Shown piece by piece: positions 1-25,300 of a stretch of 25,300 bases of DNA. Source of the DNA: a virus (taxonomy: Duplodnaviria; Caudoviricetes); the IMG/VR virus record IMGVR_UViG_3300042315_000461, positions 1 through 25,300 of that record, one strand, 5' to 3'. The notes beneath the pieces were generated by a model that was not told where the DNA came from, searched no databases, and worked only from the letters and a program-made list of their open reading frames with translations. The position numbers and the translations under genes were made by a program. The first letter of the stretch is position 1, and every line of letters begins with the position of its first letter.

Positions 1-179
1 CGCTCGCCCTCGGTCAGATTCCGCCCCGCGATGAGGTCGAGCAGCGCGTCACGAGCTCGCCGCCGAGCACACCCCTCGTCGCGGTCGCGAGTCGGGCGGT
101 TCGTGAGGATTGCGCGCGAATCAGGCGCCACGAGAATTGAGAGCAGCGCGTCGAGATGTCCCGGGTCAATGCTTACCAT
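1..179 (-). CDS. Hypothetical protein, 5' part only (MVSIDPGHLDALLSILVAPD...), runs off the window edge; its position after the initiator would suit a helicase loader/replication accessory
   Basis: ATG at 179-177 overlaps the end of the initiator ORF and is preceded by GAGGAGGG; frame is open to position 1. Function inferred from position only. Confidence 0.6.
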   Translation of the reverse strand, partial: MVSIDPGHLDALLSILVAPDSRAILTNRPTRDRDEGCARRRARDALLDLIAGRNLTEGE

Positions 180-1051: not shown

Positions 1052-1251
1052 GGCGCGACCGTGCCAGGTGTCGAGGTCGGTGCAGCCTCGCGCCACAGGC
1101 CGCGACGCTTAAGCCGCCGCCGTGCATCGGCCGACGAGGGCCGCGCGCCGCGTGCGACCCACCGCCACGCGGTCGAGAAATCCACACGCGCGATGTGCGC
1201 GAGGTCTGCGATGGTCATGTGGTCGCCGTGGAACCGTTCAAGGTCGAGCAT
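1048..1251 (-). CDS. Cro-like helix-turn-helix protein (67 aa)
   Basis: ATG at 1251 preceded by GAGGAGGG; 'TIADLAHIARVDFSTAWRWVARG' fits an HTH pattern. Confidence 0.75.
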   Translation of the reverse strand: MLDLERFHGDHMTIADLAHIARVDFSTAWRWVARGARPSSADARRRLKRRGLWREAAPTSTPGTVAP

Positions 1252-1297
1252 CGTCTGCGCCCTCCTCAGCGCGTGATACACAGTGCGCACATTTTGT

Positions 1298-1374
1298 TTG
1301 CGGGCGCAAGTGTCGTGCGCGCGAATGACGCGCCACGACTTGCGGTGCAAGGTCGGATGCAAGTTGCAACGCAA
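1298..1374. promoter_or_regulatory. Intergenic control region with TTGC-N3-GCAA palindromes (candidate operators)
   Basis: TTGCGGTGCAA at 1340-1350, TTGCAACGCAA at 1364-1374 and an N4 variant at 1298-1309. The same core occurs at 3113-3123 (one mismatch) and 6931-6941. Confidence 0.5.
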
Positions 1375-1387
1375 GATGCAACCAGCG

Positions 1388-1816
1388 TCAGAGCGGGATG
1401 ATCAGTTGCTCTGGCTCGGCTCGCAGCGCACGAGCGACGGTCGTCGATTGAATCGGCCCGCCGGTGCGCGACCGAAAGCCCTCACCACTCAGCGCCGCAG
1501 CGATCTTTCTGATGCTCAGGCCAGATGCGCGAAGCTGATGCATCCGGAACAACAAGGCGCGCTCTGTTGGGTCGATGGTCAACGCGCCAGAAGTTTTGCT
1601 ATAGCCAAGTGGAGGGTGGCCAGGCGGCACGCCTCCATGCTTCCTGATGCGCGCGTGAGCCTCGCGAATCATGGCCGAGATGGCCATATCCTTGTCGTGC
1701 ACCTTACCGTGGCAGGGCTCGCAGAGCGGGACAGTCCTTGTGCCCCCCCTGCTGCGCGGGACCACGTGATGGTCATGCAGGGGAGGAGCGGCGTCGCACT
1801 CCCAACAGGATTGCAT
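1388..1816 (-). CDS. HNH endonuclease domain fused to a serine-recombinase 'Recombinase'-type DNA-binding domain (142 aa)
   Basis: CWEC...HDHHVVPRSRGG...LCEPCHGKVH (Zn-HNH) followed by GG.PP..PPLGY...LTIDPTE...GLSIRKIAAALSGEGFRSRTGG...STTVARAL (PF07508-like). Confidence 0.8.
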   Translation of the reverse strand: MQSCWECDAAPPLHDHHVVPRSRGGTRTVPLCEPCHGKVHDKDMAISAMIREAHARIRKHGGVPPGHPPLGYSKTSGALTIDPTERALLFRMHQLRASGLSIRKIAAALSGEGFRSRTGGPIQSTTVARALRAEPEQLIIPL

Positions 1817-1823
1817 CCGGCAC

Positions 1824-2366
1824 CTACTCGCCCCGCTCGATAGCCGCCATGTCGGCGGTCATGAGCGCGGGCATGATTGCGGCCGCTGCGTCCTCGATGG
1901 CCGGCGCGATGGCAAGCATGAGCCGCTCCGCCTCGGCGCCCCGGAGTTGCGCGCGGCCGGCGACGCCCATCGGCAGACCGAGCGCGCGCCAGAGCGCGTC
2001 GAGCATGCGGCCGGCGAGGATGTCGGCGTCAGCGGCGACGCCGAACCCGGAATCCCCGGTCGTGACGGTCGCGCCCAGGTGGCGCCAGTGCACGGCCCCG
2101 AGCTGCGACAGCGGCGTCATCAGCGGCGCCGCGAGCACTGCTCCGCGCACGTCGACACCCCGCGCCCTGACTTGGCACGGCCTCGTGACCCCGCCCTGCG
2201 TCGAGCGCCCCGCGGTCAACGGGTCAGGCATCGCAGGCGGGTCGCCGACCATGCCGCCCCGGCGCCACGCGGCGAGCTCGGCCTCGAACGCGACCCACTC
2301 CGGCCCGTGCTCGTAGGCATACTCCGCGCGGCGCTCTGGGCGCTCGTTGTCGCTCGTGGTGCTCAT
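1824..2366 (-). CDS. Hypothetical protein (180 aa)
   Basis: ATGA overlap with the upstream gene; protein-like composition; no family recognised. Confidence 0.7.
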   Translation of the reverse strand: MSTTSDNERPERRAEYAYEHGPEWVAFEAELAAWRRGGMVGDPPAMPDPLTAGRSTQGGVTRPCQVRARGVDVRGAVLAAPLMTPLSQLGAVHWRHLGATVTTGDSGFGVAADADILAGRMLDALWRALGLPMGVAGRAQLRGAEAERLMLAIAPAIEDAAAAIMPALMTADMAAIERGE

Positions 2367-2749
2367 CGGCGGGACCCCATGGCAACGATGCGGTCATGCG
2401 TCGACGCCGCGAGCGACTCGACCTCGATGGTCGCCACGAGTCGCTCGGCGACGGCCTGCGCGATGCCGGACCCGACATGCTCGGAGCACGCGCCCATCAG
2501 TATGCTGATGACCCGCTCGTCGTGCATGGCGGACCAGTACGAGCCCGCGATGATGGCAGATACGGGCGTCGGGCTCGGCCCGAGCGCGATGTGCAGGCCG
2601 GACAGCCATCGGAACCGGACATGCGTCCAGTGCGCCGACTGCATGTGTGCCATCGATAGCCCGCACGCGGCGAACCGCTCGCGGACCTCGGGCGTGGCGT
2701 GGGCCAGCACGAGGCCGACCCAATCGGGAGTGATGGACGCGGGAATCAT
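2363..2749 (-). CDS. Hypothetical protein (128 aa)
   Basis: ATGA overlaps at both ends; no family recognised. Confidence 0.7.
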   Translation of the reverse strand: MIPASITPDWVGLVLAHATPEVRERFAACGLSMAHMQSAHWTHVRFRWLSGLHIALGPSPTPVSAIIAGSYWSAMHDERVISILMGACSEHVGSGIAQAVAERLVATIEVESLAASTHDRIVAMGSRR

Positions 2750-2982
2750 ACGGCAGCCGCCTGCGCAGCATGGTAGGCGAGACGCAGAGCGCGGCGCGCG
2801 AGCGCAGCGTCATACACGCCATCCTCGTCACACGGCGACATGACGGCCTCGCCGCAGCCAATGTCGAGCCCGTCGACGGTCACCTCGATGATGCTCGGCT
2901 GCATCTCCTCGAGCCACTCACCGGCGAGACCGAAGCTGTCGACCGTCACGTTGCCCTTACACGACTCGATGCGGATTTCCAT
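2746..2982 (-). CDS. Small acidic hypothetical protein (78 aa), first gene after promoter cassette copy 1
   Basis: SD GAGGAG 7 nt before the ATG at 2982; ATGA overlap with the next gene. Confidence 0.8.
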   Translation of the reverse strand: MEIRIESCKGNVTVDSFGLAGEWLEEMQPSIIEVTVDGLDIGCGEAVMSPCDEDGVYDAALARRALRLAYHAAQAAAV

Positions 2983-2988
2983 GGCATG

Positions 2989-3125
2989 TCTCCTCGCGGC
3001 CCCTCGGCCGCCTCATCACCGCGCCACTGCGGCCCGGTGAACAGACACTCTCACGCCCCGACGCGCCGGTCAATAGCGCACTTGCGCTTTTTGACACTTT
3101 GTTCCGAAGTCGTTGTGCCGCAACG
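2989..3125 (-). promoter_or_regulatory. Early promoter/operator/RBS cassette, copy 1 of an imperfect ~140-bp direct repeat
   Basis: Minus strand: palindrome 3111-3125, TTGACC (3073-3068), 17 nt spacer, TG-n-GAGTGT, GAGG-loop hairpin 2996-3011, then SD GAGGAGA. Long blocks match 6799-6943. Confidence 0.8.
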
Positions 3126-3126
3126 C

Positions 3127-3432
3127 TTACAGCCGCGCGAAAGCGACCCGCAACGAATCGCTACGCCGCACGTCGACCATGCCCGGCACCTCGACGAGCG
3201 CGACCTCGTGCCCATCGAGCGGGCCCGAGCGCACGATGCGCACCTGCCCGGCGTAGGCGTCGAGGCCGAGCCCCTCGCCGTGGGTGAGGGTCATGTGCCA
3301 CGCCCCACGCGAGAGGACGCGCTCCTCGCCGGGGCGCTGCGGCCGCTCGAGGGTGACGAGCGTGCGGGGTCCGTCGATGTGCACGGCGTCGAGGACGGAC
3401 CAGACGCGGGCGTCAGAAGGGGATGGGGTCAT
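3127..3432 (-). CDS. Hypothetical protein (~101 aa, [11 protein letters not shown]...)
   Basis: Only the C-terminal part of the listed 3127..3822 ORF looks protein-like; it fills the gap between ssb and the promoter cassette. ATG at 3432 overlaps the ssb end. Confidence 0.6.
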
Positions 3433-3895
3433 CGCCGAAGCCTCCCCCCTGCGACCCGCCGAAGCCTCCCCCCTGCCCGCTGCCGCCCTGCGTCTGCCCG
3501 CCGCGCCATCCGCCGCCACCCGCACCCGTGCCGCCCGACGCGTTGCCCCGCTGCGGTCGCTCCTCGCCGCCGCCGAGGAAGGTGACCTTGTCAGCGCGCA
3601 CCTCCCACGCCTTCCGGTTGACGCCCTCCTTGTCGGTGTACTCACGGGTCCGGAGCGAGCCCTCGACGTAGACCGACCGGCCTTTCGCCAGGTACTGCCC
3701 GCACAGCTCCGCGGTCTTGCCCCACACGCTGATGGTGTGCCACTCGGTGCGCTCCTGCTTCGCGCCGGCCTTGTCGGTCCACTGCTCCGACGTCGCGAGG
3801 CGCAGCTCGCACACAGGCTCACCGCCCTGCGTGTACCGCACCTCCGGGTCAGCCCCGAGGTTGCCGACCAGAATCACCTTGTTGACCGATGCCAT
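3413..3895 (-). CDS. ssb: Single-stranded DNA-binding protein
   Basis: [22 protein letters not shown]...ERTEWH...[24 protein letters not shown], Gly-rich linker and acidic C-terminal DDPIPF. Confidence 0.98.
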
Positions 3896-3897
3896 GC

Positions 3898-4692
3898 TCA
3901 CGTCCCTTCGTTCAGTGCCGTGCTGACGCGCACGCGAGTGTCTTCACGCCATTCGCCCAACAGCTTGATCAACTTGGTGCTGATTTCGAAGCGGTCGAAT
4001 ACCAGCAGCGCAGCCGCGAGAATTTCCATGTTTGGGTACGGGTCCGCGCTGCAATGGAAGTTCTGGAAGCGACGGCGAAAGCACCGCGCAACAGGCGTCT
4101 CGCAGTCTTCGTCTTGACAGACGAGGACGCGCCGCTGTTCTGCGACCCATTCAAAATCCTGCCCTTCGAGGACCGCGACGGTTGCCGCGAGCCCAACCCA
4201 GCTGCTCGACATCGCGCGCTTCTGCGTGCCGTTCGTCTCGAGCAGAGCAGCAGCGGTCCGGCCGAATTGTGAGTCTGCGATTGCGCGAATCTGGGTCGGC
4301 CGAGCGATACGTTTGCGCCCGTTCGCGACAGCATCGGCTGCGGTCAGGACGGCCACGAGACGGCGCGAAAGCACCAGACGGTCGCCGACGCTGCGGCGCA
4401 CGCCGCAATCTGTTGCGGCGAACGCAGCCACTGGAACGCCGACTGTGACCATCATCGGCACCGTTGCGCCTGCCTCGACCACCGCAGCGAGCCGGTGTTG
4501 CCCGTCGATGAGCACGCCTGCCGCGTCGAACGCGACCCCCTGGTGCGTCAACTGCCACTCTCCGGCCTTCATCAGCTCCGCGTAACTCTTCACCGTCCCC
4601 GGGCGCATCGGCCGATTGCTCGCGTAGTTCTTCGCCAGCCACAGCGCCGCGAGCACAGGGTCGACCAGCACCACCTCAGACTTCATCTGCAT
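3898..4692 (-). CDS. ParB/Srx-superfamily N-terminal domain protein with DGQHR motif (~264 aa)
   Basis: [47 protein letters not shown]. Start placed at ATG 4692 (6 nt after GAGGAG) because ATG 4698 overlaps the SD. Confidence 0.8.
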
Positions 4693-4894
4693 CGTCATCT
4701 CCTCGCGCCCCTCGGCGCATCGTCTCGCTGATGTGCGCGGTCAGGTCCACCACGGACTGCCGCGCCTCGTCTCTCTCCTCGAGCAGCCGCCGCACCTCTG
4801 CGCGCAGCCGCTCGACCTCCATCTCTGCCCGCTCCAGCCTCTCGGCCTGTATCGCCCGCACGAGCGCGCGGGCCAAGTGCACCTCGTCACTCAT
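4676..4894 (-). CDS. Small coiled-coil hypothetical protein (72 aa)
   Basis: ATG at 4894 in an ATGAGTGA overlap; heptad-like 'EVERLRAEVRRLLEERDEARQ'. Confidence 0.7.
   Translation of the reverse strand: MSDEVHLARALVRAIQAERLERAEMEVERLRAEVRRLLEERDEARQSVVDLTAHISETMRRGARGDDDADEV
4705..4718 (-). promoter_or_regulatory. GAGG-tetraloop hairpin abutting the SD of the ParB-like gene
   Basis: Minus strand GCGCC-GAGG-GGCGC-GAGGAGA; one of five copies. Confidence 0.6.
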
Positions 4895-5240
4895 GGCCGC
4901 CGTCCTCGTCGCCCTCGTGCCACACGTCGATGACCGGCTCGCGCCGCACCTTCGCACTCCGCAGCCGCTCCGACGCCGGGAGCGAAAGAACGCACCGCGC
5001 GGCGAGTTCCGCCAGCGCCGCCGCGTGCGCCATCGTCGCGGCCTCCGTGGCGTCATGCGCCGCCGTGCACTCGGCCCGCGCGTCGAGGTCTGCGGCCTCG
5101 CACTGCGCAGCGCACGCTGCCACGATGCGCGCCGACTCCTGCGCCATCGACTCCCCCGAGCGCAGCGCGAGTGCGCCGACTGCGACGGCCCCCAGCGCGG
5201 CGCCGATAATGAGGGACACCAGGTCCCATCGGTCACTCAT
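4887..5240 (-). CDS. Hypothetical membrane-anchored protein (117 aa)
   Basis: ATG at 5240 overlaps the recT end; N-terminal hydrophobic helix LVSLIIGAALGAVAVGALAL followed by an Ala-rich helical region with Cys residues. Confidence 0.7.
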   Translation of the reverse strand: MSDRWDLVSLIIGAALGAVAVGALALRSGESMAQESARIVAACAAQCEAADLDARAECTAAHDATEAATMAHAAALAELAARCVLSLPASERLRSAKVRREPVIDVWHEGDEDGGHE

Positions 5241-6033
5241 GGTCGCCCTCCCCCGGATACTCGACCGGCGCCGACAGCGCAGCCTCTCGCCGCGCCCGCC
5301 ACGCCTCGAGCGCGTCGGCCCCGCGCTGCGTGTCGAGGTAGGACGCTGCACCGTTGACGCGCCCGAGCGGCGCCGTGCCGAGGTCGAGGCCGTCGCGCTG
5401 AAGCATCTCCTCGATGTACTCCGCCGCGTCGTCGCCGTGCGCGAGAATGCGCGCCGTGGCGTCGCGGCGCTCGTCGGCAGACTCGGGCGCAGGGACTGCG
5501 GCCGGCGCAGGTCGCGAGGTCGCCACGGGCGCGTCGGTGCCGGCGAGCTCGTCCGGGTCGTACACCCCTGCGACCAGGTCGGGATACACGATGCGCGCGA
5601 GAGCTGCGGCGCACCGCGCCCGGAGCATCGCCTCGGGGTAGGTCTGCCACTGCCCGCCGCCGCGCACGAGGCCGGCGACGCGCGCCTGCTCCATGGTCCA
5701 CGTGAGCACGGTCGGCGAGGCGTCGCCGCGCCGGGTCGTGGAGTAGGTCGCGCGCTCTGCGGTCGACTCCACCATGCGCCACTCGACGCACTGGTCAGAG
5801 CGGCGAACAAGGGCAATGGTGGCGTCCGCCGAGAGGGTGACGCGGCCGCGAATGACGGTGACCATGCGCAGCGCCTGCATGGGACCGATACCGAGTTCGC
5901 GGCCGGTCATCAGGACCAGGAGCGCGTCCTGCGGCTTGCCGCGCAGCGCCTCCGGGGCGAGCGATGACGAGGCGATGACGATGGCGGTCGGGCCGAGCGG
6001 GTCGGCTGCTGCGACGGTGTCTACGATGCTCAT
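5233..6033 (-). CDS. recT: RecT/Red-beta-type single-strand annealing recombinase (266 aa)
   Basis: LRGKPQDALLVLMTGRELGIGPMQALRMVTVIRGR...WTMEQARVAGL...WQTYPEAMLRARC...ARIVYPDLVAGVYDPDEL; SD GGAGG and ATGA overlap at 6030-6033. Confidence 0.9.
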   Translation of the reverse strand: MSIVDTVAAADPLGPTAIVIASSSLAPEALRGKPQDALLVLMTGRELGIGPMQALRMVTVIRGRVTLSADATIALVRRSDQCVEWRMVESTAERATYSTTRRGDASPTVLTWTMEQARVAGLVRGGGQWQTYPEAMLRARCAAALARIVYPDLVAGVYDPDELAGTDAPVATSRPAPAAVPAPESADERRDATARILAHGDDAAEYIEEMLQRDGLDLGTAPLGRVNGAASYLDTQRGADALEAWRARREAALSAPVEYPGEGDHE

Positions 6034-6269
6034 TGCCGCGCCTCCTTCCAGCGTCGCCGCGCTTCGACAATCTCGACCCCGGCGAGCGCGCAGAGGGTCC
6101 GCATGTGGCGCACGTTGGGCCGCGCGTGCCCGTTCGCCCACCGCGACACGGTGGCAGCGCGGACCCCGAGCACGGCCGCGAGTTGCGCGCCCCCGCCGCA
6201 GGAGCCGCAGGCTTCGATTGTGACGTAGGCCGGGACCGCGCCCGGCTCGATGGTGTCGAGGGAAATCAC
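6030..6269 (-). CDS. XRE/Cro-family HTH protein (79 aa)
   Basis: GTGA overlap start; 'GAQLAAVLGVRAATVSRWANGHARP' is a canonical XRE HTH. Confidence 0.85.
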   Translation of the reverse strand: MISLDTIEPGAVPAYVTIEACGSCGGGAQLAAVLGVRAATVSRWANGHARPNVRHMRTLCALAGVEIVEARRRWKEARQ

Positions 6270-6508
6270 CCGAGCACCGCCGCGTTCGCCGCGCTCAGGC
6301 AGGCGCGCGCCCACTCTTTGAGCGTGCACGTCAGCACCACGCGGTCCTCCTCGACGCCGATGCAGTCGACCGTCACATTGCCGCCCTGCTGCCCGCGCAC
6401 GGTGACCGACCACGCATACCGGCTCGGTCGAGCGGCCAACTCCGCCGCGAAGTCGAGCGCCTGACTCTGGGACATCTCCATCGCAGGCGACATTGTAGCC
6501 TGTACCAT
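6266..6508 (-). CDS. Hypothetical protein (80 aa)
   Basis: SD AAGGAGG 5 nt before the ATG at 6508. Confidence 0.75.
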   Translation of the reverse strand: MVQATMSPAMEMSQSQALDFAAELAARPSRYAWSVTVRGQQGGNVTVDCIGVEEDRVVLTCTLKEWARACLSAANAAVLG

Positions 6509-6521
6509 CTCATCCTCCTTC

Positions 6522-6535
6522 GCGCCCCTGGGCGC
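6522..6535 (-). promoter_or_regulatory. CAGG-tetraloop variant of the SD-abutting hairpin
   Basis: Minus strand GCGCC-CAGG-GGCGC-GAAGGAGG. Confidence 0.55.
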
Positions 6536-6630
6536 CGTGCCGTCATCAGTCGCCACCATGGCGTGCAGGTCGCGCCAGCGTGCAGGCTGACGGCGTGCGA
6601 CCCATCGAGACGCCCCGGAGGGCGCGGCGG

Positions 6631-6792
6631 TCAGGCGTCGTACCCGATGGAGCCATCCCTGGCCGCCCGTGCCGCTGCCCTGACGAGAGAAGCGGCCCGC
6701 AGCCTGACGAGCGCGTCGCGCATTCGCTGAATCTGGCGCGCATTCTCCTCCTCAGACACTCGGCGACCTGGCCTTGACTTCTTATTGTCCAT
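6631..6792 (-). CDS. Small basic hypothetical protein (53 aa, MDNKKSRPGRRVSEEENARQIQR...), first gene after promoter cassette copy 2
   Basis: SD GAGGAG 7 nt before the ATG at 6792, the same geometry as copy 1. Confidence 0.75.
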   Translation of the reverse strand: MDNKKSRPGRRVSEEENARQIQRMRDALVRLRAASLVRAAARAARDGSIGYDA

Positions 6793-6798
6793 GCTGTC

Positions 6799-6943
6799 TC
6801 TCCTCGCGGCCCCTCGGCCGCCTCTGCTGTTTTGCACCGTGGCACATCGCCTCGGTGAACAGACCATCGCACAGCCCATTGCGCCGGTCAATAGCCCACT
6901 TGCGCTTTTTGACACTTTCTTCCCAGACCGTTGCGCCGCAACG
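6799..6943 (-). promoter_or_regulatory. Early promoter/operator/RBS cassette, copy 2
   Basis: Palindrome CGTTGCGCCGCAACG 6929-6943, TTGACC (6891-6886), 17 nt spacer, TG-n-GATGGT, hairpin 6806-6821, then SD. Sits at the boundary between tail genes and early genes. Confidence 0.8.
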
Positions 6944-6946
6944 ACC

Positions 6947-9900
6947 CTAGCCTACGTCGCGACCCCGTGCCGCCGCAGTCCCGAGCGTGTGCGCGGCATC
7001 GCTCAGGTAGGCATAGACCCGCGCTGCCGCGCTCGCATCGTCGTAGTCTGCGTGGTCGATGTCGTCGCCCGCCGCGAGGCCGTGAGCCGCGCCGAACGTC
7101 ACGGTGTTGCCCGCAATGACGGTGATGGTGACCTCGCCACCGCTCGCCCACGCGCCCGCAGGGATGCACCGCACCTTGTCGCCGACCGCGAAGTAGGCGA
7201 GGGACGTGCGCCCAATGTCGGTCTGCGCCTCGCCCGTGCGCGGGCAGACAGCGCTCGTGTACTGATTCGCGCTGACCACCACGACGGTCGGCGAGCTGAC
7301 CGACGCGACCCGCAGCGACGGTGCCCACCCCGAGGGTCGGAGGCCTGCTGCGCCGAGGGTCAGCTGCACGCGATTCCCCAGCCAGTCCCGCTCGACGCCG
7401 AGCACGCGGCACGGTTCCGAGGTCAGGCCGAGCGTCCCGTCGATGCCGACCGCAGACGAGCAGGTCAGCGTGACCGTGTCGCCGACCCCGACCTCGAGCG
7501 CTCCCACGTGGTCCGCACTGACCGCGACCTGGTACCGCACGCGAGGCACGCCGGCGCGACGTCGCAGGTGCTGGATGACCGGGAGCAACAGCACCGCCGC
7601 ATCTGCGCCCCCGCCGTCGAGGCGGATGTGCCGCAGGTCGAGCGTCATCTGCTCGCCCGCGTCGCCCCCGGTCGCGTCGACCGCATCGCTGTCTACGTAG
7701 GTCGTCACGCGCCCGGGCTCACCGGCTGCGTCGTGGTCGCTCTCGATGCGATACGAGCGCACAACCCGCCCGTCGACCGTCGAGACGCACTGACCGTCCG
7801 CGAGGATGTCGGCGTCCGTGATGACCATGACCGCGTCGGCCGATGGCGCCGGCCCGATGGGCGTACACACGAGGCGTTGCCGCCCGTCTGCCCACCGCTG
7901 CACGACCGCTGCGCCGATGAGCGTCAGCACGCCGCCCATGACGTCAGCGACGGTCGAGGAGCCCGACACGTCAGCCGAGACGCCGCGCAGGGGCTCGGGC
8001 ATCGGGAGCGCAGAGAATGAGTCCTCGAGCATGTCGTCATCGTCGAGGCCCGCGCCGTAGGGCAGGACGTCGTAGGCCCCGTGGACCTGCCCGCCCCCGC
8101 CCGACTGGAGTAGGCGCAGAAGCAGGATGCCCGGGTCGACGCCCTGTGACCGGGCCTGCGGCGTGACCGTGATGGGCGTGCCGCGGTCGAGGATGTACCG
8201 CCGGTCATCGTCGACCCACGAGACGGTCAGGAGGTAGCCGACGAGGTCGCCCGTGTCCGGGTCGTTGACCGCGGAGCTGGCCGTCACGATGACGTCGACG
8301 TGCCCGCGTGCGTCGTTGCTCTCGTCGCCGCCGCTCAGGCGCATCATCTGCGGCTGTCCCGCACCGGAGTAGACGTCATCCGCCACGAGCAGCCGGCGCT
8401 CCGAACCCTGGTACCACGCGAGCGCAGGGCCTCGGCACGGGATGCGGGCCAGCGCGCGGAGGTCTGCGTCGGCCGAGACGCGCTCGCGGCGGATGGCGAT
8501 GCTCTGCGCCTCGAGGTCGTAGAGCTTGCGCGCATCGTCCGGGGCGCGGAAGTCGACCCCGACGCACACGTCGAGGCCCGGGGTCCAGCGCAGCGAGAGC
8601 GGCGCGCGCGCAGCTCCGCCGACGATGAGCCCGGCGCGCCAGAGCCACCCGGCCCCGTCCCCCGCCAGCTCGACCCGCGCCCATCGGCCGAGGCGCCCCT
8701 GCGTCGTAGCGATGCGCCATCGGTCGCAGTCGTGCCGCGTATCGTTCCATGTCACGGCGCTCGCGTAGGTTCCTGCGATGACCTGCAACGCCCTCTCGGG
8801 CCAGCGCACGAGCTCGCCCGTGCCGGTCGGGTCGACGAGTTCGAGCGTGCACGGCTCCTCGACATAGGGCGAGACGACGAGGCCGAACGGCGCACCGCCC
8901 GCAGGCGCTGCCGGTGATGGGTCCGTGGTCAGCCGGCCGCCGCCGCCGCCCAGTGCGCGCGCAGTGACCGCGTGCGTGGTCGACACCCCGCCCGTGTCCA
9001 CCTCGATCTGCCCGCCGCGGGGATGGTCCGGGTCGAGAGTGATGTCGGTAAGCCGCTCGTGCGCGCGGTAGCACCGGATGTCGACCTCAGCATCGGTCCC
9101 GCCGTGGACCTTGTACTGGCTCTGATACGCCTCCGAACGCTCAAAAATCTGGTCATGCGTGACGCGCGAGCCCTGCCCCGGCACGATGTAGTGCCAGCCC
9201 CGCACGAGGGTCGTGCTCGTCGCGCCCGAGGACAGCCGCTGCCGCAGGAGCGCCGACAGCGGGGCGATACGCAGCTCGAGCGTGAGCCCGTCAGCGGCGA
9301 GGGATGGCTCGCGGTCGAGCACGCCGCGCCAGACCTCGGCGTACGACCCGACGCGCACCCCGTTCGCGACCGGCGCCGCCTGCACGATGCAGACGCGCCC
9401 GCGCCACGCCGTGACCTCGCGAGTCACCGCAGGCTGATACCCGCGCGACGGCTGCCACACGTGCCGAGCGATGCGCGTGTAGGCCACGCCGCGCGCCACG
9501 TCGAGGTCGAGCGCAGAGCCGGTGCCTGCGCCCGCGACGTGGAGCGCCTCGAGACCGCAATGGATGAGCCCGGTCCATGCGCTGATGTCCGACGTGCACG
9601 TGATGACGGACGGCCCGGCCTCGCTGATGAGCGTGGCGCCGAGCGTGGTCCTCGACGTCGCGCCCCGGGGTCCGATGCGCCGCAGGGTCGAGAGCGGGTC
9701 GACGGTGCGCGCCGTGGTCGTGGCGTGGAGCGGCGAGAGCGCAGCGCCCCGAGCGAGGAGCCGAACCGACACCGGCGACTGCTCGACCGTGGCGTCGACC
9801 TCATCGACGCTGCACGACTCGGGACCGAGCGACAGCACGGCCTCGATGTCGCGGTAGGTCAGCGCGCCGCCCGTGCCCGGGATGTTCTGCGAGTCGGGAT

Positions 9901-9994
9901 GCGGGCCGGAGTAGTAGCGGTCGGTGAGCCCGGCGACCGTGACCACGACCGCCCACTGCCGACCCCGGAGAACGTCGAGCGCGGCGACGGTCAT
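6947..9994 (-). CDS. Large tail-tip / baseplate hub protein (~1015 aa)
   Basis: Last and largest gene of the tail block; ATG at 9994 in an ATGA overlap; hub-like motif 'LEVGVGDTVTLT...CRVLGVERDWLGNRVQLTL'. Confidence 0.7.
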   Translation of the reverse strand: MTVAALDVLRGRQWAVVVTVAGLTDRYYSGPHPDSQNIPGTGGALTYRDIEAVLSLGPESCSVDEVDATVEQSPVSVRLLARGAALSPLHATTTARTVDPLSTLRRIGPRGATSRTTLGATLISEAGPSVITCTSDISAWTGLIHCGLEALHVAGAGTGSALDLDVARGVAYTRIARHVWQPSRGYQPAVTREVTAWRGRVCIVQAAPVANGVRVGSYAEVWRGVLDREPSLAADGLTLELRIAPLSALLRQRLSSGATSTTLVRGWHYIVPGQGSRVTHDQIFERSEAYQSQYKVHGGTDAEVDIRCYRAHERLTDITLDPDHPRGGQIEVDTGGVSTTHAVTARALGGGGGRLTTDPSPAAPAGGAPFGLVVSPYVEEPCTLELVDPTGTGELVRWPERALQVIAGTYASAVTWNDTRHDCDRWRIATTQGRLGRWARVELAGDGAGWLWRAGLIVGGAARAPLSLRWTPGLDVCVGVDFRAPDDARKLYDLEAQSIAIRRERVSADADLRALARIPCRGPALAWYQGSERRLLVADDVYSGAGQPQMMRLSGGDESNDARGHVDVIVTASSAVNDPDTGDLVGYLLTVSWVDDDRRYILDRGTPITVTPQARSQGVDPGILLLRLLQSGGGGQVHGAYDVLPYGAGLDDDDMLEDSFSALPMPEPLRGVSADVSGSSTVADVMGGVLTLIGAAVVQRWADGRQRLVCTPIGPAPSADAVMVITDADILADGQCVSTVDGRVVRSYRIESDHDAAGEPGRVTTYVDSDAVDATGGDAGEQMTLDLRHIRLDGGGADAAVLLLPVIQHLRRRAGVPRVRYQVAVSADHVGALEVGVGDTVTLTCSSAVGIDGTLGLTSEPCRVLGVERDWLGNRVQLTLGAAGLRPSGWAPSLRVASVSSPTVVVVSANQYTSAVCPRTGEAQTDIGRTSLAYFAVGDKVRCIPAGAWASGGEVTITVIAGNTVTFGAAHGLAAGDDIDHADYDDASAAARVYAYLSDAAHTLGTAAARGRDVG

Positions 9995-10644
9995 AGCGCC
10001 GTCCCCCACACCGGGAGCACGGCCACCGCGAGGATGCGGCACGAGGTCGACGTCACGCGCAGCACGGCGACCGACCCGCGCACGTCACCCGCCGTCGTGT
10101 TCGCCTCGAGGGCCCGAGGCCCGCTCGCGCTGCCTGCCGTCGCGAGGTCAGGCCGGCGAACGTCGCCCGATACCTGCCACGTGGGCACGATGCGCCGCTG
10201 CCCGGACGCCGCCGCGATGCGTATCTCGGGCAGCTCGCGACACGCGAGAGTCCCGAGCGCGCGCGACCAGGTCACGCCGATGTCGATGACGGTCGAGGTG
10301 ATGGAGTCGAGCCGCACCGTCACGACCGGCGACGACGAGCCGCCGGCCTCCTGCGCTGCCGTGAGCACTGCGACTTGGAGCGCGGAGTCGAGAGGCCCGA
10401 TGGTGAGGAGCGCGTCGAGGGCTTGGTTGACCCCGTCGGCCGAGTGCACGTACCCATGCCGCCGCGCCGCCGTGGTCTCTACGACCTGCGTGCCGTGCAC
10501 GACCTGCCAATGCCGCGCGTAGACCCCGGCGAGCGTGTTGGCCCCGCCGGCGAGGCCGGCGAGCGTGGCACCCGTGACGGTGCGCGCGGTGCGCATCTCG
10601 GCCGCAGCGGGGAGGATGAGACGCGCGGTGAAGGGGATGCTCAA
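9991..10644 (-). CDS. Putative minor tail protein (~217 aa; start could instead be GTG 10650 or 10656)
   Basis: TTGA overlap with the upstream stop; located in the tail block; beta-rich. Confidence 0.65.
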   Translation of the reverse strand: MSIPFTARLILPAAAEMRTARTVTGATLAGLAGGANTLAGVYARHWQVVHGTQVVETTAARRHGYVHSADGVNQALDALLTIGPLDSALQVAVLTAAQEAGGSSSPVVTVRLDSITSTVIDIGVTWSRALGTLACRELPEIRIAAASGQRRIVPTWQVSGDVRRPDLATAGSASGPRALEANTTAGDVRGSVAVLRVTSTSCRILAVAVLPVWGTAL

Positions 10645-11702
10645 GTCCACCCCCACACGAGGACGCCGTGCACCTGGTCCACCGTGCTCGTGTCGGCCTG
10701 GAGCCGGTCGACGAACGCCGGGTCATGCTGCGGCACGATGCCGACCGCCTGCCAATCGATGCCGAGCGAGGCCGGCGAGATGCCCTGCCCCGGGCGCTGG
10801 CGGATGGTCGCCGTGCTCATCGAGCGCGCAGCCCCGGCGCCGACCTGCACCTCAACCACAGGCCCGCGCTCGCCGTCGCCAGAGTGCCGCAGGACGATGC
10901 GCCCGTCTGCCGCCGACGTGGTGCGGATGCGCACCGTGAGGTCGAGCGCGCGGTCATCGACGTCGGGCAGGCGCGGGCCCGGGAAGCTGTGCCGATACGG
11001 GGCGAGTTCGTTTTGACTCGCGGTGTCGACGTTGCGCAGGTCGCTCACGTTGGCGTGGACGCGCGGCAGCGCCGCGAGCCCAGCCATGCACCCGCGCAGG
11101 TCGTGCCCGAGGCGCGCCGAGAGCGGGTTGTCGGGCTCGATGTCGTCGTCATCGACCGCGATGCGCCCGTCTGCGAGACGCCCGGTCGGGAGGCTGGAGA
11201 GCACCGGATACCGCACGAGGAGCGCGACCACCTCGACGGGCGTTGCGCCGTCGCCGAGCAGGTGCATCGTGATGTTCTCGTACCCGCCTGCGAACCCGAC
11301 CGCGAGGCTGCCCGAGTAGACCGCGAGGGACGTGGAGAGCCCGTCTGCGGCGTCGATGGCGAGCGTGGCCGCGCCCGTGGCGCTGCGTATCTCGACCGCG
11401 TGTGTGGTCACCGGCCCGGCAGCCACGCGCGCGATGAGCGTCACGGTGACGGCAGTCGCGCCGGCGAGCTGCGGAATCTCCCACCGCGCGCACTCGGCGA
11501 GCGTGCCCGCTGTGCGCCGACACACCGACGCGCCGCCCGTCTGCGCCCACGACTGCGAGATGACCGTGCACCGCGCGACCTGTGACATGAGGTAGTTGAC
11601 AGCGCTCCCGAGCGGCGTGACGGTCGACGCCTTGAGCGCCTCGCCCGTGAGCAGGGCCTGCGGGTCGACCGCGGTGTAGGAGCCGGGGATGGTGCGCGCC
11701 AC
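10641..11702 (-). CDS. Putative minor tail protein with two related modules (353 aa)
   Basis: GTG start 6 nt after an extended -10 motif; located between tape measure and hub. Confidence 0.7.
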   Translation of the reverse strand: MARTIPGSYTAVDPQALLTGEALKASTVTPLGSAVNYLMSQVARCTVISQSWAQTGGASVCRRTAGTLAECARWEIPQLAGATAVTVTLIARVAAGPVTTHAVEIRSATGAATLAIDAADGLSTSLAVYSGSLAVGFAGGYENITMHLLGDGATPVEVVALLVRYPVLSSLPTGRLADGRIAVDDDDIEPDNPLSARLGHDLRGCMAGLAALPRVHANVSDLRNVDTASQNELAPYRHSFPGPRLPDVDDRALDLTVRIRTTSAADGRIVLRHSGDGERGPVVEVQVGAGAARSMSTATIRQRPGQGISPASLGIDWQAVGIVPQHDPAFVDRLQADTSTVDQVHGVLVWGWT

Positions 11703-11708
11703 GCGGCG

Positions 11709-11724
11709 AGAGTATCACACGCCG
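11709..11724 (-). promoter_or_regulatory. Extended -10 (leaderless-type) promoter motif, copy 3
   Basis: CGGCGTGTGA-TACTCT-N6-GTG; overlaps the stop codon of the Mom-like gene. Confidence 0.7.
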
Positions 11725-12299
11725 CGCAGTGCGTCAGTGACCTCGACCCGCGCGAGCGGCCCACGATACATCACAAGTTTCAGGCTCTTGCCGCTGGTCC
11801 AGATTCGCGGGCCTCGCGTGCTGCCTGCCGGCCTCGATGCGCCCCACCCTGTCGTGTTCCCGAGGACGCGATATCCGGCACGCCTGAAGCATGCCCCGGG
11901 CACCACAGACGAGACCGCCGCCGGGTCCACCATCGTCTCCCAGTGCAACGGCGTCCACCCGTACCGCGCCGCCCACTCTGCCGCTGCCACGCCGTGCCAC
12001 GTGCGCAGGATGTCACCGGCCGATGGCTCGCCCGGCAGTCGCGCGTCGACCCGGTAAAGCGCGCAGCACACGGTCGAGGCCAGCGGTCGAGCGTCCATCA
12101 GGCCAAGCGAACGCCTCGCCGCGAGTTTGAATGAAGGCTCACCGAGGACAATCCACCCGCGCGCGCGCCCGGCAGTGAAGATGCGCCACGCGAGTTTCTT
12201 TCCCGGCGGCGCCCCGCGGCTACCGGTGTAGTGGTCCGCGTATGCCTGCACGAGACCTGCGTCCCATGTCGACACCGGCAGGAATGCCGCGTCGCTCAT
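11715..12299 (-). CDS. Mom-like / DUF4338-like GNAT-fold putative DNA-modifying enzyme (194 aa)
   Basis: 'ADHY...PPGKKL...GWIVLG...CCALYR...WETMVDP....PGACFRRAGYRVLGNTTG' matches the HY...(T/S)x(V/A)DP...GxxF/YxAxxW/YxxxGxT pattern of Mom/DUF4338 proteins. It has its own SD (AGGAGGG). Confidence 0.65.
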   Translation of the reverse strand: MSDAAFLPVSTWDAGLVQAYADHYTGSRGAPPGKKLAWRIFTAGRARGWIVLGEPSFKLAARRSLGLMDARPLASTVCCALYRVDARLPGEPSAGDILRTWHGVAAAEWAARYGWTPLHWETMVDPAAVSSVVPGACFRRAGYRVLGNTTGWGASRPAGSTRGPRIWTSGKSLKLVMYRGPLARVEVTDALRGV

Positions 12300-12310
12300 G
12301 CTGCCCTCCT

Positions 12311-12326
12311 GCGCTCCCTCGAGCGC
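12311..12326 (-). promoter_or_regulatory. GAGG-tetraloop hairpin abutting the SD of the Mom-like gene
   Basis: Minus strand GCGCTC-GAGG-GAGCGC-AGGAGGG-CAGC-ATG. Confidence 0.65.
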
Positions 12327-12358
12327 TGCGCATGATGAGCACGTCGCCGCGCTCGTGT

Positions 12359-13603
12359 CTACGCGTCCTCGTCGACGAGCAGCGTGACCTCGTCAGAGCG
12401 GACCCGCGCGTCGGCAAGGCCGAACGCCACATCCGCAGCGCTGCCCCCTGCGACGCGACCAGGCACGCGCCCGCGGAGATGCTCGGTCGTGTAGGCCGTC
12501 GAGTGCGCCGCGACCGCCGTCCCGTCGTAGAGGTCGGCGAGGAGTCGAGAGCGGCGAGGGTCGCCGAGGTCGTGTGAGATGGCGACGCGCTGCCCGCGCC
12601 CGAGGAGAGGCCAGCACGCGGCGAGGGCCTGCCCCTCGTCGGAGGTCGTGTGCGTCGGCCCGCGCAGGGTGTACCCGACGCCGTGCTGCCGGCAGTGCCC
12701 GATGTGTCGACCCCGAGCGCGGCCGCTGGAGAGCTCGACGAGCCCAGCCGACGTGCGCAGGGTCTGCGAGTAGCGGGTCATGCCGCGCGAGAGCGGGAGG
12801 ACCAGCGGGCAGACGTATGTCGCCGTGAGCAGCGCGCGCCCGCCCGTGACCACCGGCGACTCGCTGCCGGTGAATCCCATCAGCCGGCGAAAGGCCAACC
12901 CCGCCGTCGTCGAGAGCCACCCGATGGGGTCGATGGTCGGCGACGGGTACGAGGTCCACACGTGCCCCGTCTCGTCGAGGCCCCACCGGACGCGCCGGTC
13001 TGCGTTGTCGACCGCGTCGTTGTCCGCGTCCTCGAGGCTCGTGAGCGGCGAGACGCCCTCGTCGGTCGTGGTCGAGGCGCGGAGCATCGTCGGCACCGAG
13101 TGCACGCGCGCCGTGATGGTCGAGACGCCGATGGTGTCGATGCCGTCCGTGATGGTCAGCGAGTGCGGCGATGCGCCCGCGTCGTAATTGCCTCGCGTCC
13201 ATGGGAGCGTGCCGACCACCTGCCGGTATCCCGAGACGAGAGACGCCGCCGTGGTGCCCGTGGGCATGCCGTAGGCGTTGCCCGCCGTGGCGACGAGCGA
13301 CCACGCCCCGAGGCTCGCATTCGGCACGCGAATCCTGACGCGGTCGTCAGTCGTGATGTCGGCCTCCCACGCGAGAGTGCCGCCGCCCGCCGCTGCCCAC
13401 GCCGTGATGATGTCGCCGGCGAGATGCCGCCCGGCCTGCGACCCGTAGCCGGTGAGCCACGCGACGACGTCCGGGTATCGCCCGCCGTCGTACATCGAGG
13501 CCGCAGCGGGGAGCGTGATGTTCGTCGCGCCTCGCGTGTACACGATGGCGCCCGCGAGCGCAGCGACGTCGCAGCCTGCGAGGAGTGCGGGATACCTGGC
13601 CAT
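12359..13603 (-). CDS. Putative tail protein following the tape measure (distal-tail position, 414 aa)
   Basis: TAATG overlap with the tape measure stop; Thr/Gly-rich, beta-strand character; synteny. Confidence 0.7.
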   Translation of the reverse strand: MARYPALLAGCDVAALAGAIVYTRGATNITLPAAASMYDGGRYPDVVAWLTGYGSQAGRHLAGDIITAWAAAGGGTLAWEADITTDDRVRIRVPNASLGAWSLVATAGNAYGMPTGTTAASLVSGYRQVVGTLPWTRGNYDAGASPHSLTITDGIDTIGVSTITARVHSVPTMLRASTTTDEGVSPLTSLEDADNDAVDNADRRVRWGLDETGHVWTSYPSPTIDPIGWLSTTAGLAFRRLMGFTGSESPVVTGGRALLTATYVCPLVLPLSRGMTRYSQTLRTSAGLVELSSGRARGRHIGHCRQHGVGYTLRGPTHTTSDEGQALAACWPLLGRGQRVAISHDLGDPRRSRLLADLYDGTAVAAHSTAYTTEHLRGRVPGRVAGGSAADVAFGLADARVRSDEVTLLVDEDA

Positions 13604-19526: not shown

Positions 19527-19532
19527 GGTGCG

Positions 19533-19548
19533 AGCCTACCACACACCG
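19533..19548 (-). promoter_or_regulatory. Extended -10 (leaderless-type) promoter motif, copy 2
   Basis: CGGTGTGTGG-TAGGCT-N6-ATG in a 39-nt intergenic gap; no SD. Confidence 0.7.
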
Positions 19549-20405: not shown

Positions 20406-20603
20406 TCAGCGGCGGGGCTTGCGCTTGGGCGCCTCGACGGCCTCGGGCTCGATGGCCTCGGGCGCGGGCTCGTCGAGGAGCACAATCGACCCCTCGCCGA
20501 ACCACCCGATGACCCGGTCGATGTCGGCCTGCGAGAGGTCGACGTCCACCGGCGCCGAGTAGTGGCCGAGCTTCGGAGCCGCAACCATGAGGCGCGCGCG
20601 CAT
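20406..20603 (-). CDS. Small hypothetical protein after the capsid gene (65 aa)
   Basis: TGATG overlap with the capsid stop; acidic/Pro linker and basic tail (PKRKPRR), as often seen in small post-capsid genes. Confidence 0.7.
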   Translation of the reverse strand: MRARLMVAAPKLGHYSAPVDVDLSQADIDRVIGWFGEGSIVLLDEPAPEAIEPEAVEAPKRKPRR

Positions 20604-24959: not shown

Positions 24960-24965
24960 GTGCGC

Positions 24966-25009: not shown

Positions 25010-25264
25010 CTACTCGGCTGCGGTGTCTGCGGCCCCGGGCACGGGGGCTCCGTCGCGCAACACCGTCATACCGCCGCGCAGCGCATCCCACACGGCTTCG
25101 GACTCCGTGTCGAAACTCTCGCAAGCCTCCCACACAGAGCGGTCGGACGTGTAGGCGCGCTCCCAGTTCATCCGCTCAACGGCGATGCCGACTGCCTTGG
25201 CCAGCTCGGCAGCCTGCTTGATGTTGCTTTCGTCGTCGCGCAACACCGCTACGTGGTCCTTCAT
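25010..25264 (-). CDS. Hypothetical protein (84 aa)
   Basis: Protein-like acidic ORF on the same strand as all other genes; no family recognised. Confidence 0.65.
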   Translation of the reverse strand: MKDHVAVLRDDESNIKQAAELAKAVGIAVERMNWERAYTSDRSVWEACESFDTESEAVWDALRGGMTVLRDGAPVPGAADTAAE

Positions 25265-25300
25265 CGGCCCTGCATTGCACTCCCACAGAGTCCATATGCA

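Follow-up and report, generated by a model that had tools for sequence, protein, structure and literature searches.

The window, which is the whole stretch of 25,300 nucleotides that was analysed, carries on its minus strand five short hairpins that each stand directly before a Shine-Dalgarno (SD) sequence, together with predicted promoters and the genes behind them. Sites are named by letter, and the gene position behind a hairpin is called its slot.

Hairpin A, 6806..6821, minus: 6-bp stem, GAGG loop, SD at 6799-6805, stem probability 0.99; second hairpin of a predicted leader
Hairpin B, 6522..6535, minus: 5-bp stem, CAGG loop (GAGG in the relatives G003, G004 and X573), SD at 6514-6519, stem probability 0.68; internal to a predicted transcript
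Hairpin C, 4705..4718, minus: 5-bp stem, GAGG loop, SD at 4698-4704; within the coding sequence of an upstream 72-aa ORF
Hairpin D, 2996..3011, minus: 6-bp stem (5-bp in G004), GAGG loop, SD at 2989-2995; second hairpin of a predicted leader
Hairpin M, 12311..12326, minus: 6-bp stem, GAGG loop, SD at 12304-12310; starts 5 nt past a predicted -10 box, at the predicted transcript start
Predicted sigma70-like promoter of the 194-aa gene, 12332..12361, minus: -35 at 12356-12361, 18 nt, -10 at 12332-12337
Promoter-hairpin-SD-gene module, 11703..12359, minus: with the 194-aa ORF at 11715-12299 (DruA/Mom-like as a lead)
Promoter cassette copy 1 (predicted), 6788..6943, minus: A-rich tract, -35 at 6886-6891, -10 at 6863-6868, 5' leader hairpin at 6836-6856, hairpin A, SD
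Promoter cassette copy 2 (predicted), 2978..3125, minus: -35 at 3068-3073, -10 at 3045-3050, 5' leader hairpin at 3018-3038, hairpin D, SD
53-aa Arg-rich ORF, 6631..6792, minus: slot A
80-aa ORF, 6266..6508, minus: slot B; stop codon overlapping the start of an HTH gene (6030-6269)
264-aa ORF, 3898..4692, minus: slot C; phrog_5931, function not assigned
78-aa ORF, 2746..2982, minus: slot D; an unrelated 76-aa ORF takes its place in G004
RecT-family ssDNA annealing protein, 5233..6033, minus: PF03837, E 1.3e-5; phrog_561, E 6.9e-38
Related hairpin ahead of a 67-aa HTH gene, 1257..1272, minus: the SD itself forms the loop
103-aa ORF, 3' part, 25010..25300, minus: its GAGG hairpin (site H) lies just past the window end

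Occurrence and folding of the hairpins

All five hairpins that the first-pass annotation had listed are present on the minus strand with an SD behind each, and the genes downstream are non-structural, as it had proposed, based on Pfam and phrog annotation and on the comparison of gene starts. They lie on the coding strand and are the only C-NAGG-G hairpins with at least 4 Watson-Crick pairs on either strand of the window. Comparison with shuffled sequence, which had been suggested as a check, gave 5 hairpins of at least 5 pairs with an SD against a mean of 0.01 and a maximum of 1 in 300 dinucleotide shuffles, using a search pattern derived from the window data themselves; without the SD requirement the shuffles gave a mean of 0.41 and a maximum of 3. 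When the loop sequence was ignored, 9 SD-adjacent tetraloop hairpins were counted in the window (mean 0.45, maximum 3 in 20 shuffles).

Hairpins D (2996) and A (6806) do stem from a single duplication, that of a 156-bp promoter cassette whose two copies are 78% identical; the inner 3 pairs of the 5' leader hairpin are flipped in copy 2 relative to copy 1. The supposed Mom-like gene is hairpin-led as described, while its identity is a lead only, with no Pfam match and with Atlas feature matches at 0.91 that include DruA in 19% of members and Mom in 42%. Its promoter was the sole match of a consensus scan of positions 1-13000 (1 found, 0.5 expected), and a terminator scan of the same region found none on the minus strand. 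The hairpin at 1257..1272 was absent from the earlier list; it starts 7 nt past the -10 of a promoter-like match (1280-1309), and its counterpart in G004 has another stem, again with the SD in the loop. At the other end of the window, G001 is 100% identical to positions 25010..25300 and has the site H hairpin.

In 140-nt folds the stem probability was 0.68-1.00 for four of the copies and 0.01 for the copy at 4705-4718, which forms in a 66-nt fold; two sites of the clade, E and G, were also low (0.21 and 0.06). The folding model gives GAGG and GGGG loops the same stability as GNRA (-12.6 vs -12.5), with GAGC, GUGC and CAGG loops 0.9-1.4 kcal/mol weaker. The Rfam search that had been called for matched no family: for short hairpins, which are hard targets for covariance models, the window and three related stretches gave only weak miRNA and snoRNA matches, far below gathering scores.

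It is quite unlikely, in our judgement, that the hairpin works mainly on translation, either by blocking re-initiation from upstream or by keeping the SD unpaired in RNA of 71% GC. Several internal copies begin within a few bases past a stop codon, in A/C-rich stretches, and structures past stop codons can insulate against re-initiation, according to the available part of one report (PMC7518266), but promoter-proximal copies have no ribosome upstream. At site M the real hairpin had a lower SD opening energy than 60/60 shuffles. Over 44 sites, however, the opening energy was below that of the shuffled hairpin in 22 (mean 4.5 vs 4.8 kcal/mol, p 0.35), and it did not differ from the value after hairpin deletion (p 0.78). 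The proposal of a standby or SD-exposing element therefore finds no computational support in the SD opening energies of these 44 sites.

Conservation, covariation and loop types in related phages

Near relatives of the phage carry 8-11 copies each, in line with the conservation expected of a selected element. A clade search that used the 3' half of the motif only recovered 14 distinct coding-strand stems: one has a mismatch and the other 13 pair throughout, 5 of these using G-U on the mRNA strand. At the orthologous site A, one pair is seen as G-C, G-U and A-U, and the outer GCG/CGC pairs are almost invariant within the clade. As the stems differ yet stay paired, nearly every departure being a G-U in the mRNA, there has been selection on RNA structure, as the first-pass annotation had claimed. 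The palindromes could in principle act at the DNA level, as operators bound by a dimeric repressor or as road blocks of the stoperator kind, given the two HTH genes in the region and the copies near promoters; this is extremely improbable, as the half-site spacing varies by 2 bp, the inner bases covary, G-U departures fall on one strand, and all copies face the same way and abut the SD.

The loop and the C-G closing pair had been thought to be kept throughout. G003 has a GAGG copy closed by U-A as well as a GAGGG pentaloop, and the GAGG form is missing from the sister lineages (RecT 55-72% identical), whose hairpin-SD units carry GGGG, GGGA, GAGC, GUGC, AGGG or GGGGA loops instead; therefore neither loop nor closing pair is invariant. 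In a RecT tree, 27/27 rows of the family have an SD-adjacent G-loop hairpin and the loop type tracks lineage, and the element is common to the whole phage family. No cultured member of the family was found in the annotated phage collection, where the best RecT match was below 60% identity.

G-N-G-N loops make up 21/34 SD-adjacent hairpins (10 of the 21 from one clade) against 109/1189 background hairpins, G occupies loop position 3 in 27/34, and true UUCG and GAAA loops are absent. Because of this strong bias we have kept the reading of a regulon, in which a sequence-specific RNA-binding protein of host or phage would read the G-rich loop and co-regulate translation of the hairpin-led genes, although we hold it to be doubtful. 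Hairpins set flush with the SD, a near-invariant loop and base pairs around a covarying middle, and CsrA over the cut-off in 19/41 genomes of the putative host phylum would all fit such a factor. Against this, members of the family differ in loop, closing pair and stem length (5-8 bp), two or three loop types occur together in one genome, and the motif was not found as a repeated feature in the sampled host-phylum genomes. No RNA-binding Pfam family was found among the 33 window and 29 G004 proteins, most of which are without any match. SSB similarity alone points to uncultured myxobacteria as the putative host.

CsrA requires GGA in the loop (consensus ANGGA), which is absent from the five window copies (GAGG or CAGG, C-G closed) and from the GAGC and GUGC loops; GGA loops occur only in the separate 1257-1272 hairpin and in a few sister loops. 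The 53-aa protein had been put forward as a ligand but is encoded in 0/13 comparison sequences, including the complete G004 with its 8 hairpins, and its ORF appears to be strain-specific cargo rather than a conserved ligand. ANTAR targets, which consist of two weak hairpins with six-base loops (A at position 1, G at position 4) and work with an ANTAR protein, were also considered and rejected: the present stems are strong tetraloop stems, in the window clade the base equivalent to the first loop position is C, and no ANTAR Pfam match was found among the window and G004 proteins.

Site J, just beyond window position 1, has a promoter, a hairpin and an SD-like sequence without an apparent gene start, which also counts against a regulon. 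It could give rise to a structured RNA with an exposed CUCCUC that pairs in trans with the GAGG loops and SDs and shuts off the early genes. The 120-nt leader from J to E is 89-91% identical in three relatives, one of its hairpins shows stable-loop swaps, and the C/U segment bulges out unpaired in one of six predicted folds. Such an RNA is nevertheless very unlikely: the conservation comes from three close relatives, other folds pair the C/U segment in cis, and two of the three relatives have no clear U-tract terminator. It was not found in sister lineages that retain the hairpins, and the five regions scanned held no clear counterpart for the sister GGGG loops. Another possibility, though a doubtful one, is that the G-N-G-N loop is a recognised signal through which a host factor, or the CUCCUC-bearing J RNA, jointly sets the stability or translation of all early cargo, making each hairpin both a slot and a membership in a regulon. 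The host factor could conceivably be a nuclease guide, a ribosomal component or another RNA-binding protein.

Predicted transcript starts and gene exchange behind the hairpins

Promoter-like boxes were predicted at A, D, M, G, I and J, and none were found at B, C, E, F and H. A stem of at least 5 pairs starts 4-8 nt past the -10 in 23/38 coding-strand promoter-like matches (orthologous copies included) against 2/14 for the opposite strand and 15.6% of random windows (Fisher 0.004), where promoters and +1 are predictions and the promoter pattern was hand-tuned after the sites had been seen. Matches of the A/D type (5 of the 38) were scored negative, and four of them fold with an interrupted helix at +1. 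By this prediction, 1/5 window copies (M) and 4/11 clade sites would be 5'-terminal.

When G004 and G003 are compared, homology breaks directly behind the hairpin-SD at 7/8 hairpin starts against 3/27 others, a comparison confounded by the largely structural make-up of the control genes; breaks also occur at some early genes that lack a hairpin. Four unrelated genes follow the site A hairpin in four relatives. An added gene stands right behind the hairpin-SD in one strain at each of slots B, C, E, F and G, with the resident gene shifted downstream; in G004 the HTH gene lies directly behind hairpin B. The 264-aa ORF of slot C is missing in G003, where a variant hairpin and SD stand immediately upstream of SSB, and G004 has an allele with 43% identity. 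The 135-aa gene of G003 and X573 has a hairpin copy on both sides, and site D of G004 is a chimera of an A-type promoter and a D-type leader. Beyond what had been seen in the window at first, the hairpins thus seem to mark predicted transcript starts and gene-swap junctions.

These patterns could mean that the unit is foremost a recombination anchor like that of PeSL cassettes, a short repeat spread by RecT-type exchange behind which cargo genes can land next to a functional SD, the hairpin being kept only as a harmless self-contained structure. We consider this unlikely, since it takes selection on RNA structure to produce stem changes that are compensated and G-U that falls on the mRNA strand. 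The slot comparison found no cargo gene in more than one slot, modules M and H were gained together with flanking sequence rather than from hairpin to hairpin (the module at 11703..12359 is missing from G004 as a single block), and random exchange followed by selection would also leave junctions at gene starts.

The explanation we prefer, with a probability of about one in two, is that the hairpin with its strong SD is the standard gene-start module of leadered early and accessory genes, serving as both mRNA guard and exchange point. As relatives keep hairpins with other loops at predicted starts and swap points, a gene-start module is more probable than the switch of one regulator. Covarying stems, a single orientation, a constant position at the SD, family-wide occurrence and breaks behind the SD are what the sequences show. 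A stabilising element is the best supported of the options in the first-pass annotation, and we infer that what it would provide is protection of the mRNA.

In this gene-start module, the hairpin would act as a compact 5' barrier that, with an SD-bound ribosome, shields downstream mRNA from 5'-end-dependent decay. In Bacillus subtilis a 5' hairpin or a ribosome-binding site stabilises the mRNA downstream (PMC3997798, available part), and in the putative host phylum RNase J is over the cut-off in 21/41 genomes and RNase Y in 23/41. Transcripts from M, G, I, J and many sites of the sister lineages would open with the hairpin as their first structure; at A and D another hairpin would occupy +1 and the GAGG hairpin come second. 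The internal copies at B, C, E, F and H are the weakest step; they may form a second barrier once upstream RNA has been cut or chewed, or act as an insulator after a stop codon. Site C speaks against a barrier, as it lies within coding sequence and its hairpin is predicted to stay unfolded in wide context. Site J, without a gene start, fits protection better than control of translation. Late operons appear to be leaderless and most internal genes appear to overlap an upstream stop, so the module would mark most of the places where ribosomes load afresh on leadered mRNA.

Cargo genes would also be exchanged behind the hairpin-SD as a fixed point, probably through recombination at short homologies, for which the RecT protein is the likely recombinase. 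Loop uniformity within a lineage could then arise because recombination spreads and homogenises the copies, with RecT encoded among them, while selection may favour a stable, G-first, purine-rich loop. Stability alone is not sufficient as an explanation, given the G-N-G-N bias, the lack of UUCG and GAAA and the use of the weaker GAGC, GUGC and CAGG loops.

If the gene-start module is real, it would be a natural 20-base expression module that is both mRNA guard and hinge of phage mosaicism, available in many natural variants of both stem and loop. It could provide compact expression parts for GC-rich myxobacteria and a marker for locating accessory-gene slots in these phage genomes. A new class of regulator would follow only if the loop has a ligand. 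Should the loop be a recognised signal, phages of uncultured myxobacteria would have a 20-base plug-in slot that gives a captured gene both its ribosome site and membership in a post-transcriptional regulon, and that captures genes much as an integron does but needs no integrase.

Comparison with known systems

One close parallel is the PeSL (promoter-early stem-loop) cassette known from T4-type phages (PMC2839356, PMC4122927). In the available parts of these papers, PeSL are repeated intergenic units of a sigma70-like promoter, a stem-loop and an SD before variable orphan genes, which are gained, lost or replaced at the units. The same exchange of variable orphan genes is found here (7/8 vs 3/27 starts), with one gene flanked by two copies. 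PeSL stem-loops, in contrast, are described around or before the promoter boxes, as terminators or attenuators, and mini-circles between units have been shown, whereas the present hairpins lie at or past the predicted +1, flush with the SD and without a U-tract. The shared unit is about 20 bp here and about 100 in PeSL, 5/11 clade sites are without a predicted promoter, and the hairpin phages form a GC-rich 34-kb family unrelated to T4-type phages.

The SAS/ESAS of cluster K mycobacteriophages are, in the part of PMC3203893 available, a clade-specific AGGAG-containing repeat of 11-19 copies in one orientation, before non-structural genes only and absent from the host, with a consensus that differs among subclusters. 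The hairpins likewise stand at non-structural starts in one orientation and are rare in the sampled genomes of the putative host phylum. SAS are, however, 13-bp and non-palindromic, and the 17-bp inverted repeats of ESAS were judged there not to support RNA pairing; the hairpins covary as RNA and have no sequence match to SAS, so that they were not placed in that sequence class. The function of SAS was left untested in that text, and the hairpin family makes the question of start-associated repeats testable with short reporters.

Similar to the 5' stabilisers (aprE leader and STAB-SD of B. subtilis, ompA and papA of E. coli; PMC3997798, available part), there is a hairpin at or close to the predicted 5' end, with little unpaired sequence, adjoining a strong SD, in a putative host phylum that has both RNase J and RNase Y, and at one site the SD-like sequence is not followed by an apparent gene start. 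Stabilisers of this kind place the helix within about 0-3 nt of the 5' end, a placement predicted for 23/38 promoter-like sites and 1/5 window copies. Those stabilisers are single natural leaders with measured half-lives, whereas here there is a repeated, homogenised module, half of its copies internal, recognised through genome comparison.

CsrA/RsmA sites also place a short hairpin beside the SD, and differ in that the window loops lack GGA. The T4 C(UUCG)G hairpins of Tuerk et al. (1988) are reportedly intercistronic. In the available part of PMC4371310, one lineage likewise reuses a small stable tetraloop hairpin many times over in its mRNA with no ligand needed; the T4 loops are UNCG, while those described here are G-rich and GNRA-like (GAGG, GGGG, GAGC) and are tied to accessory-gene SDs and swap points.

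Hairpins in the window and in close relatives

The window phage is tailed, has 71% GC and is represented by a fragment of its genome, in which portal, protease, capsid and tail genes are followed by RecT, SSB, two HTH genes and the replication initiator. The five hairpins of the first-pass annotation were recovered at their exact positions on the minus strand, which is the strand of all called genes, and they are the only C-NAGG-G hairpins in the window with at least four Watson-Crick pairs:

2996-3011, minus strand: hairpin D
4705-4718, minus strand: hairpin C
6522-6535, minus strand: hairpin B
6806-6821, minus strand: hairpin A
12311-12326, minus strand: hairpin M

The combination of hairpin and Shine-Dalgarno sequence (SD) was observed five times, compared with a mean of 0.01 and a maximum of 1 in 300 shuffles, and a loop-blind count gave nine SD-adjacent hairpins in the window compared with 0.45 in shuffles. 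Two of the five copies were, as had been claimed, products of duplication, sitting in a 156-bp duplicated promoter cassette. An SD without a hairpin is also present, for example ahead of the capsid and RecT genes. An Rfam search of the window and related stretches gave nothing close to a gathering score. Other features of the window were as follows:

640-718: probable origin iterons, palindromic tandem repeats within the replication initiator gene
1257-1272, minus strand: hairpin with its loop formed by the SD of a 67-aa HTH gene
1388-1816, minus strand: 142-aa ORF with an HNH-like motif and a recombinase DNA-binding-like domain, likely a mobile endonuclease
11703-12359, minus strand: self-contained promoter-hairpin-SD-gene insertion amid tail genes
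20603-21661, minus strand: major capsid protein

The 640-718 repeats give rise to the weak Rfam miRNA matches of the window, and such repeats seem to do so in L334, another record compared. The counterpart of the 1257-1272 hairpin in the close relative G004 has another stem, again with the SD in the loop. GGA in a hairpin loop is the look of a CsrA site, which the 1257-1272 hairpin shares as a candidate only; CsrA was found in 19/41 genomes of the putative host phylum. The 142-aa ORF has a lower third-position GC and a patchy occurrence in relatives. The gene previously called Mom-like encodes a 194-aa product whose likeness to DruA and Mom holds by language-model features only (matches to DruA and Mom clusters); it has a 34% relative in the record L285, and a role in DNA modification or anti-defence is possible. 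For the major capsid protein, identity is 96% to G004 and 46% to G003, another close relative, while the portal is 99% identical; this is a swap of the capsid module between close relatives.

In pattern scans of viral contigs, multi-copy matches were confined to close relatives, with 10 hairpin sites in G001, 11 in G003 and 8 in G004. G004 (34,333 bp, classed complete) encodes an IstB-like loader, matches a terminase weakly and has no integrase match among 29 proteins scanned. Stems were searched with the 3' half and the SD only. Of 14 distinct coding-strand stems, 13 were fully paired and one had a mismatch, and five contained G-U as read on the mRNA strand; the four opposite-strand matches were mostly unpaired. 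Depending on the phage, one pair of site A reads G-C, G-U or A-U, and at site D one entire pair is gained or lost between phages. Part of this variation may be gene conversion between copies and not independent change. Even so, the variation keeps pairing, which excludes chance and speaks against DNA operators. The expected conservation in relatives was borne out, while the C-G closing pair is not invariant, since G003 has a GAGG loop closed by U-A as well as a GAGGG pentaloop.

Gene exchange and loop diversity

Between G004 and G003, homology breaks directly behind 7/8 hairpin-led starts compared with 3/27 others (17/52 starts could not be scored), and with G003 as the query, behind 6/7 compared with 2/26 (13/46 unscored), a contrast that is inflated because the controls were mostly structural genes. 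The sole exception was site J, which lies just past window position 1 and lacks a true gene start; when it was dropped, p was 3e-5. In slot A, each of four phages has a gene unrelated to those of the others. In slots B, C, E, F and G, an additional gene sits right behind the SD in one strain and the resident gene is shifted downstream. A 135-aa gene in G003 and X573 is flanked by two hairpin copies, and site D of G004 is chimeric, combining cassettes A and D. Exchange purely from hairpin to hairpin is disfavoured, however, as modules M and H arrived together with DNA from their flanks and none of the cargo genes was seen in more than one slot.

Syntenic phages with 65-80% DNA identity have their own repeated hairpin ahead of SDs; the GAGG pattern was found in 0/5 sister-genus records, one of the five being more distant. 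Scanning metagenomes for RecT yielded 51 loci, among which the family members have stems of 5-8 pairs and GGGG, GGGA, GAGC, GUGC, AGGG, AGGC, AGAG or GGGGA loops. In a quick RecT tree, an SD-adjacent hairpin was present in every one of the 27 family rows, under a filter that demanded G at loop position 3. Loop type tracks lineage, and a single genome often has two or three types. The folding model scores GAGG and GGGG loops equal to GNRA in stability and GAGC, GUGC and CAGG loops lower.

Without the filter, G is at position 3 in 27/34 distinct SD-adjacent tetraloops compared with 382/1189 background hairpins, and G-N-G-N loops make up 21/34 and 109/1189, respectively, where about 10 of the 34 look like chance matches in coding sequence and 10 of the 21 come from the window's clade. 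This bias is left unexplained by mRNA protection, the reading preferred below, and so keeps alive a regulon in which a ligand reads the G-N-G-N loops, which we consider unlikely.

The 53-aa Arg-rich protein, previously suggested as one candidate ligand, was rejected: it is absent from all 13 comparison sequences, and every sequence in which it occurs is 100% identical to the window's copy. An Atlas search with a family-wide 180-aa protein as candidate ligand gave no usable match. Compared by their consensus features, CsrA, ANTAR, boxB and DNA-operator readings were rejected or ranked low.

Position in predicted transcripts

The hairpin starts 5-7 nt past a predicted -10 box at M, G, I and many sister-lineage sites. 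In a promoter-first test, a stem started 4-8 nt past the -10 box in 23/38 coding-strand promoter-like matches, compared with 9, 2 and 1 at later offsets, 2/14 on the opposite strand and 15.6% in random windows; because the pattern was hand-tuned and the 38 matches include orthologues, this is suggestive, not proof, of a hairpin at the predicted transcript start. The predicted +1 of A and D is taken by an interrupted hairpin that covaries, with the GAGG hairpin second, and five sites (B, C, E, F and H) lie inside predicted transcripts.

Site J (G001 sense strand 12829-12950; L039 11198-11377, minus strand) has a TTGACA promoter, a GAGG hairpin with the same spacing, from the TTGACA box, and an SD-like sequence without an apparent gene start. 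The hairpin is followed by a structured leader of 120 nt, which contains a C/U-rich, anti-SD-like segment and a hairpin that swaps its loop between UUCG, UAAC and UCAC; a terminator-like stem precedes the IstB-like gene. It is a candidate leader or small RNA, and no counterpart was found in the sister lineages.

No SD is present at three late gene-block heads (24957-24977, 19524-19544 and 11700-11720, minus strand); each has an extended -10-like box placed exactly six bases ahead of its start codon, as does a fourth in G001, G003 and G004. As the late operon transcripts look leaderless by prediction and most internal genes overlap the preceding stop codon, we infer that on leadered early mRNA the hairpin-SD lies at most of the points where ribosomes load anew.

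In B. subtilis, a 5' hairpin or ribosome-binding site stabilises the mRNA behind it (PMC3997798), and a compact stable helix at the predicted +1 beside a strong SD agrees with this rule. Internal copies could act once upstream RNA is removed, or insulate after stop codons, where structures serve as insulators (PMC7518266). We give a probability of about 0.5 to the hairpin and strong SD being an mRNA-protecting gene-start module. SD exposure by the hairpin was rejected, and ribosome standby, suggested earlier, gained no computational support: over 44 sites the SD opening energy did not differ from that with a shuffled or deleted hairpin (60 shuffles per site).

The host is probably a myxobacterium-like cell, judging from the best cellular SSB match (a Myxococcales bin, 76%, in a scan of 5/64 parts) and the organism-named protein matches (4/5 Myxococcota, Myxococcales or Bradymonadia). 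RNase J was over the cut-off in 21/41 and RNase Y in 23/41 genomes of the putative host phylum. The 5-bp hairpin pattern gave 38 matches in 34/301 genomes of this phylum, that of G006, compared with 18 for the reversed control, and is not a repeated feature of the genomes sampled. A host RBS element was rejected, with at most two matches per genome and mostly unpaired ones among the 30 inspected (10 Watson-Crick paired, 1 G-U, 19 unpaired); an ATG lay within 12 nt of one paired match. A paired GAGG hairpin with an SD behind it and an ATG 13 nt further along is common to L349 and L352, two genomes of the putative host phylum, and may be one genuine cellular site.

Among 77 non-clade phage matches, which include those of a fixed-stem search, a start with an ORF behind it was found in 9/31 paired and 6/46 unpaired ones (p 0.14), and five records checked had one paired copy apiece. 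Single GAGG-loop hairpin, SD and ATG sites occur in unrelated phages (L064, L073, L116, L141, L165, L171, L018, L019 and L075), two of them with 36-37% GC and a G-U/A-U variant pair. Spread to unrelated phages was rejected, as these single-copy sites are, as a set, not significantly above chance.

Comparison with known systems

The UUCG hairpins of T4 are intercistronic. The hairpin-SD element is real, conserved and, as far as searched, undescribed; no description was found in the literature covered, which was partial, so absence from print is not established. The main text of a 2026 myxophage preprint mentions no hairpin, stem-loop, Shine-Dalgarno, leaderless or RecT, and its supplements could list such phages. 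The promoter-early stem-loop cassettes (PeSL) of T4-type phages (PMC2839356, PMC4122927) are alike in gene shuffling but differ in stem-loop position and terminator features, and the start-associated sequences of cluster K mycobacteriophages (PMC3203893) are alike in distribution but unlike in sequence and structure. The repeated T4 UUCG hairpins are a further precedent (PMC4371310). Site J recalls STAB-SD in having an SD-like sequence and no gene start. The element can be regarded as a variant of already known phage gene-start cassettes.
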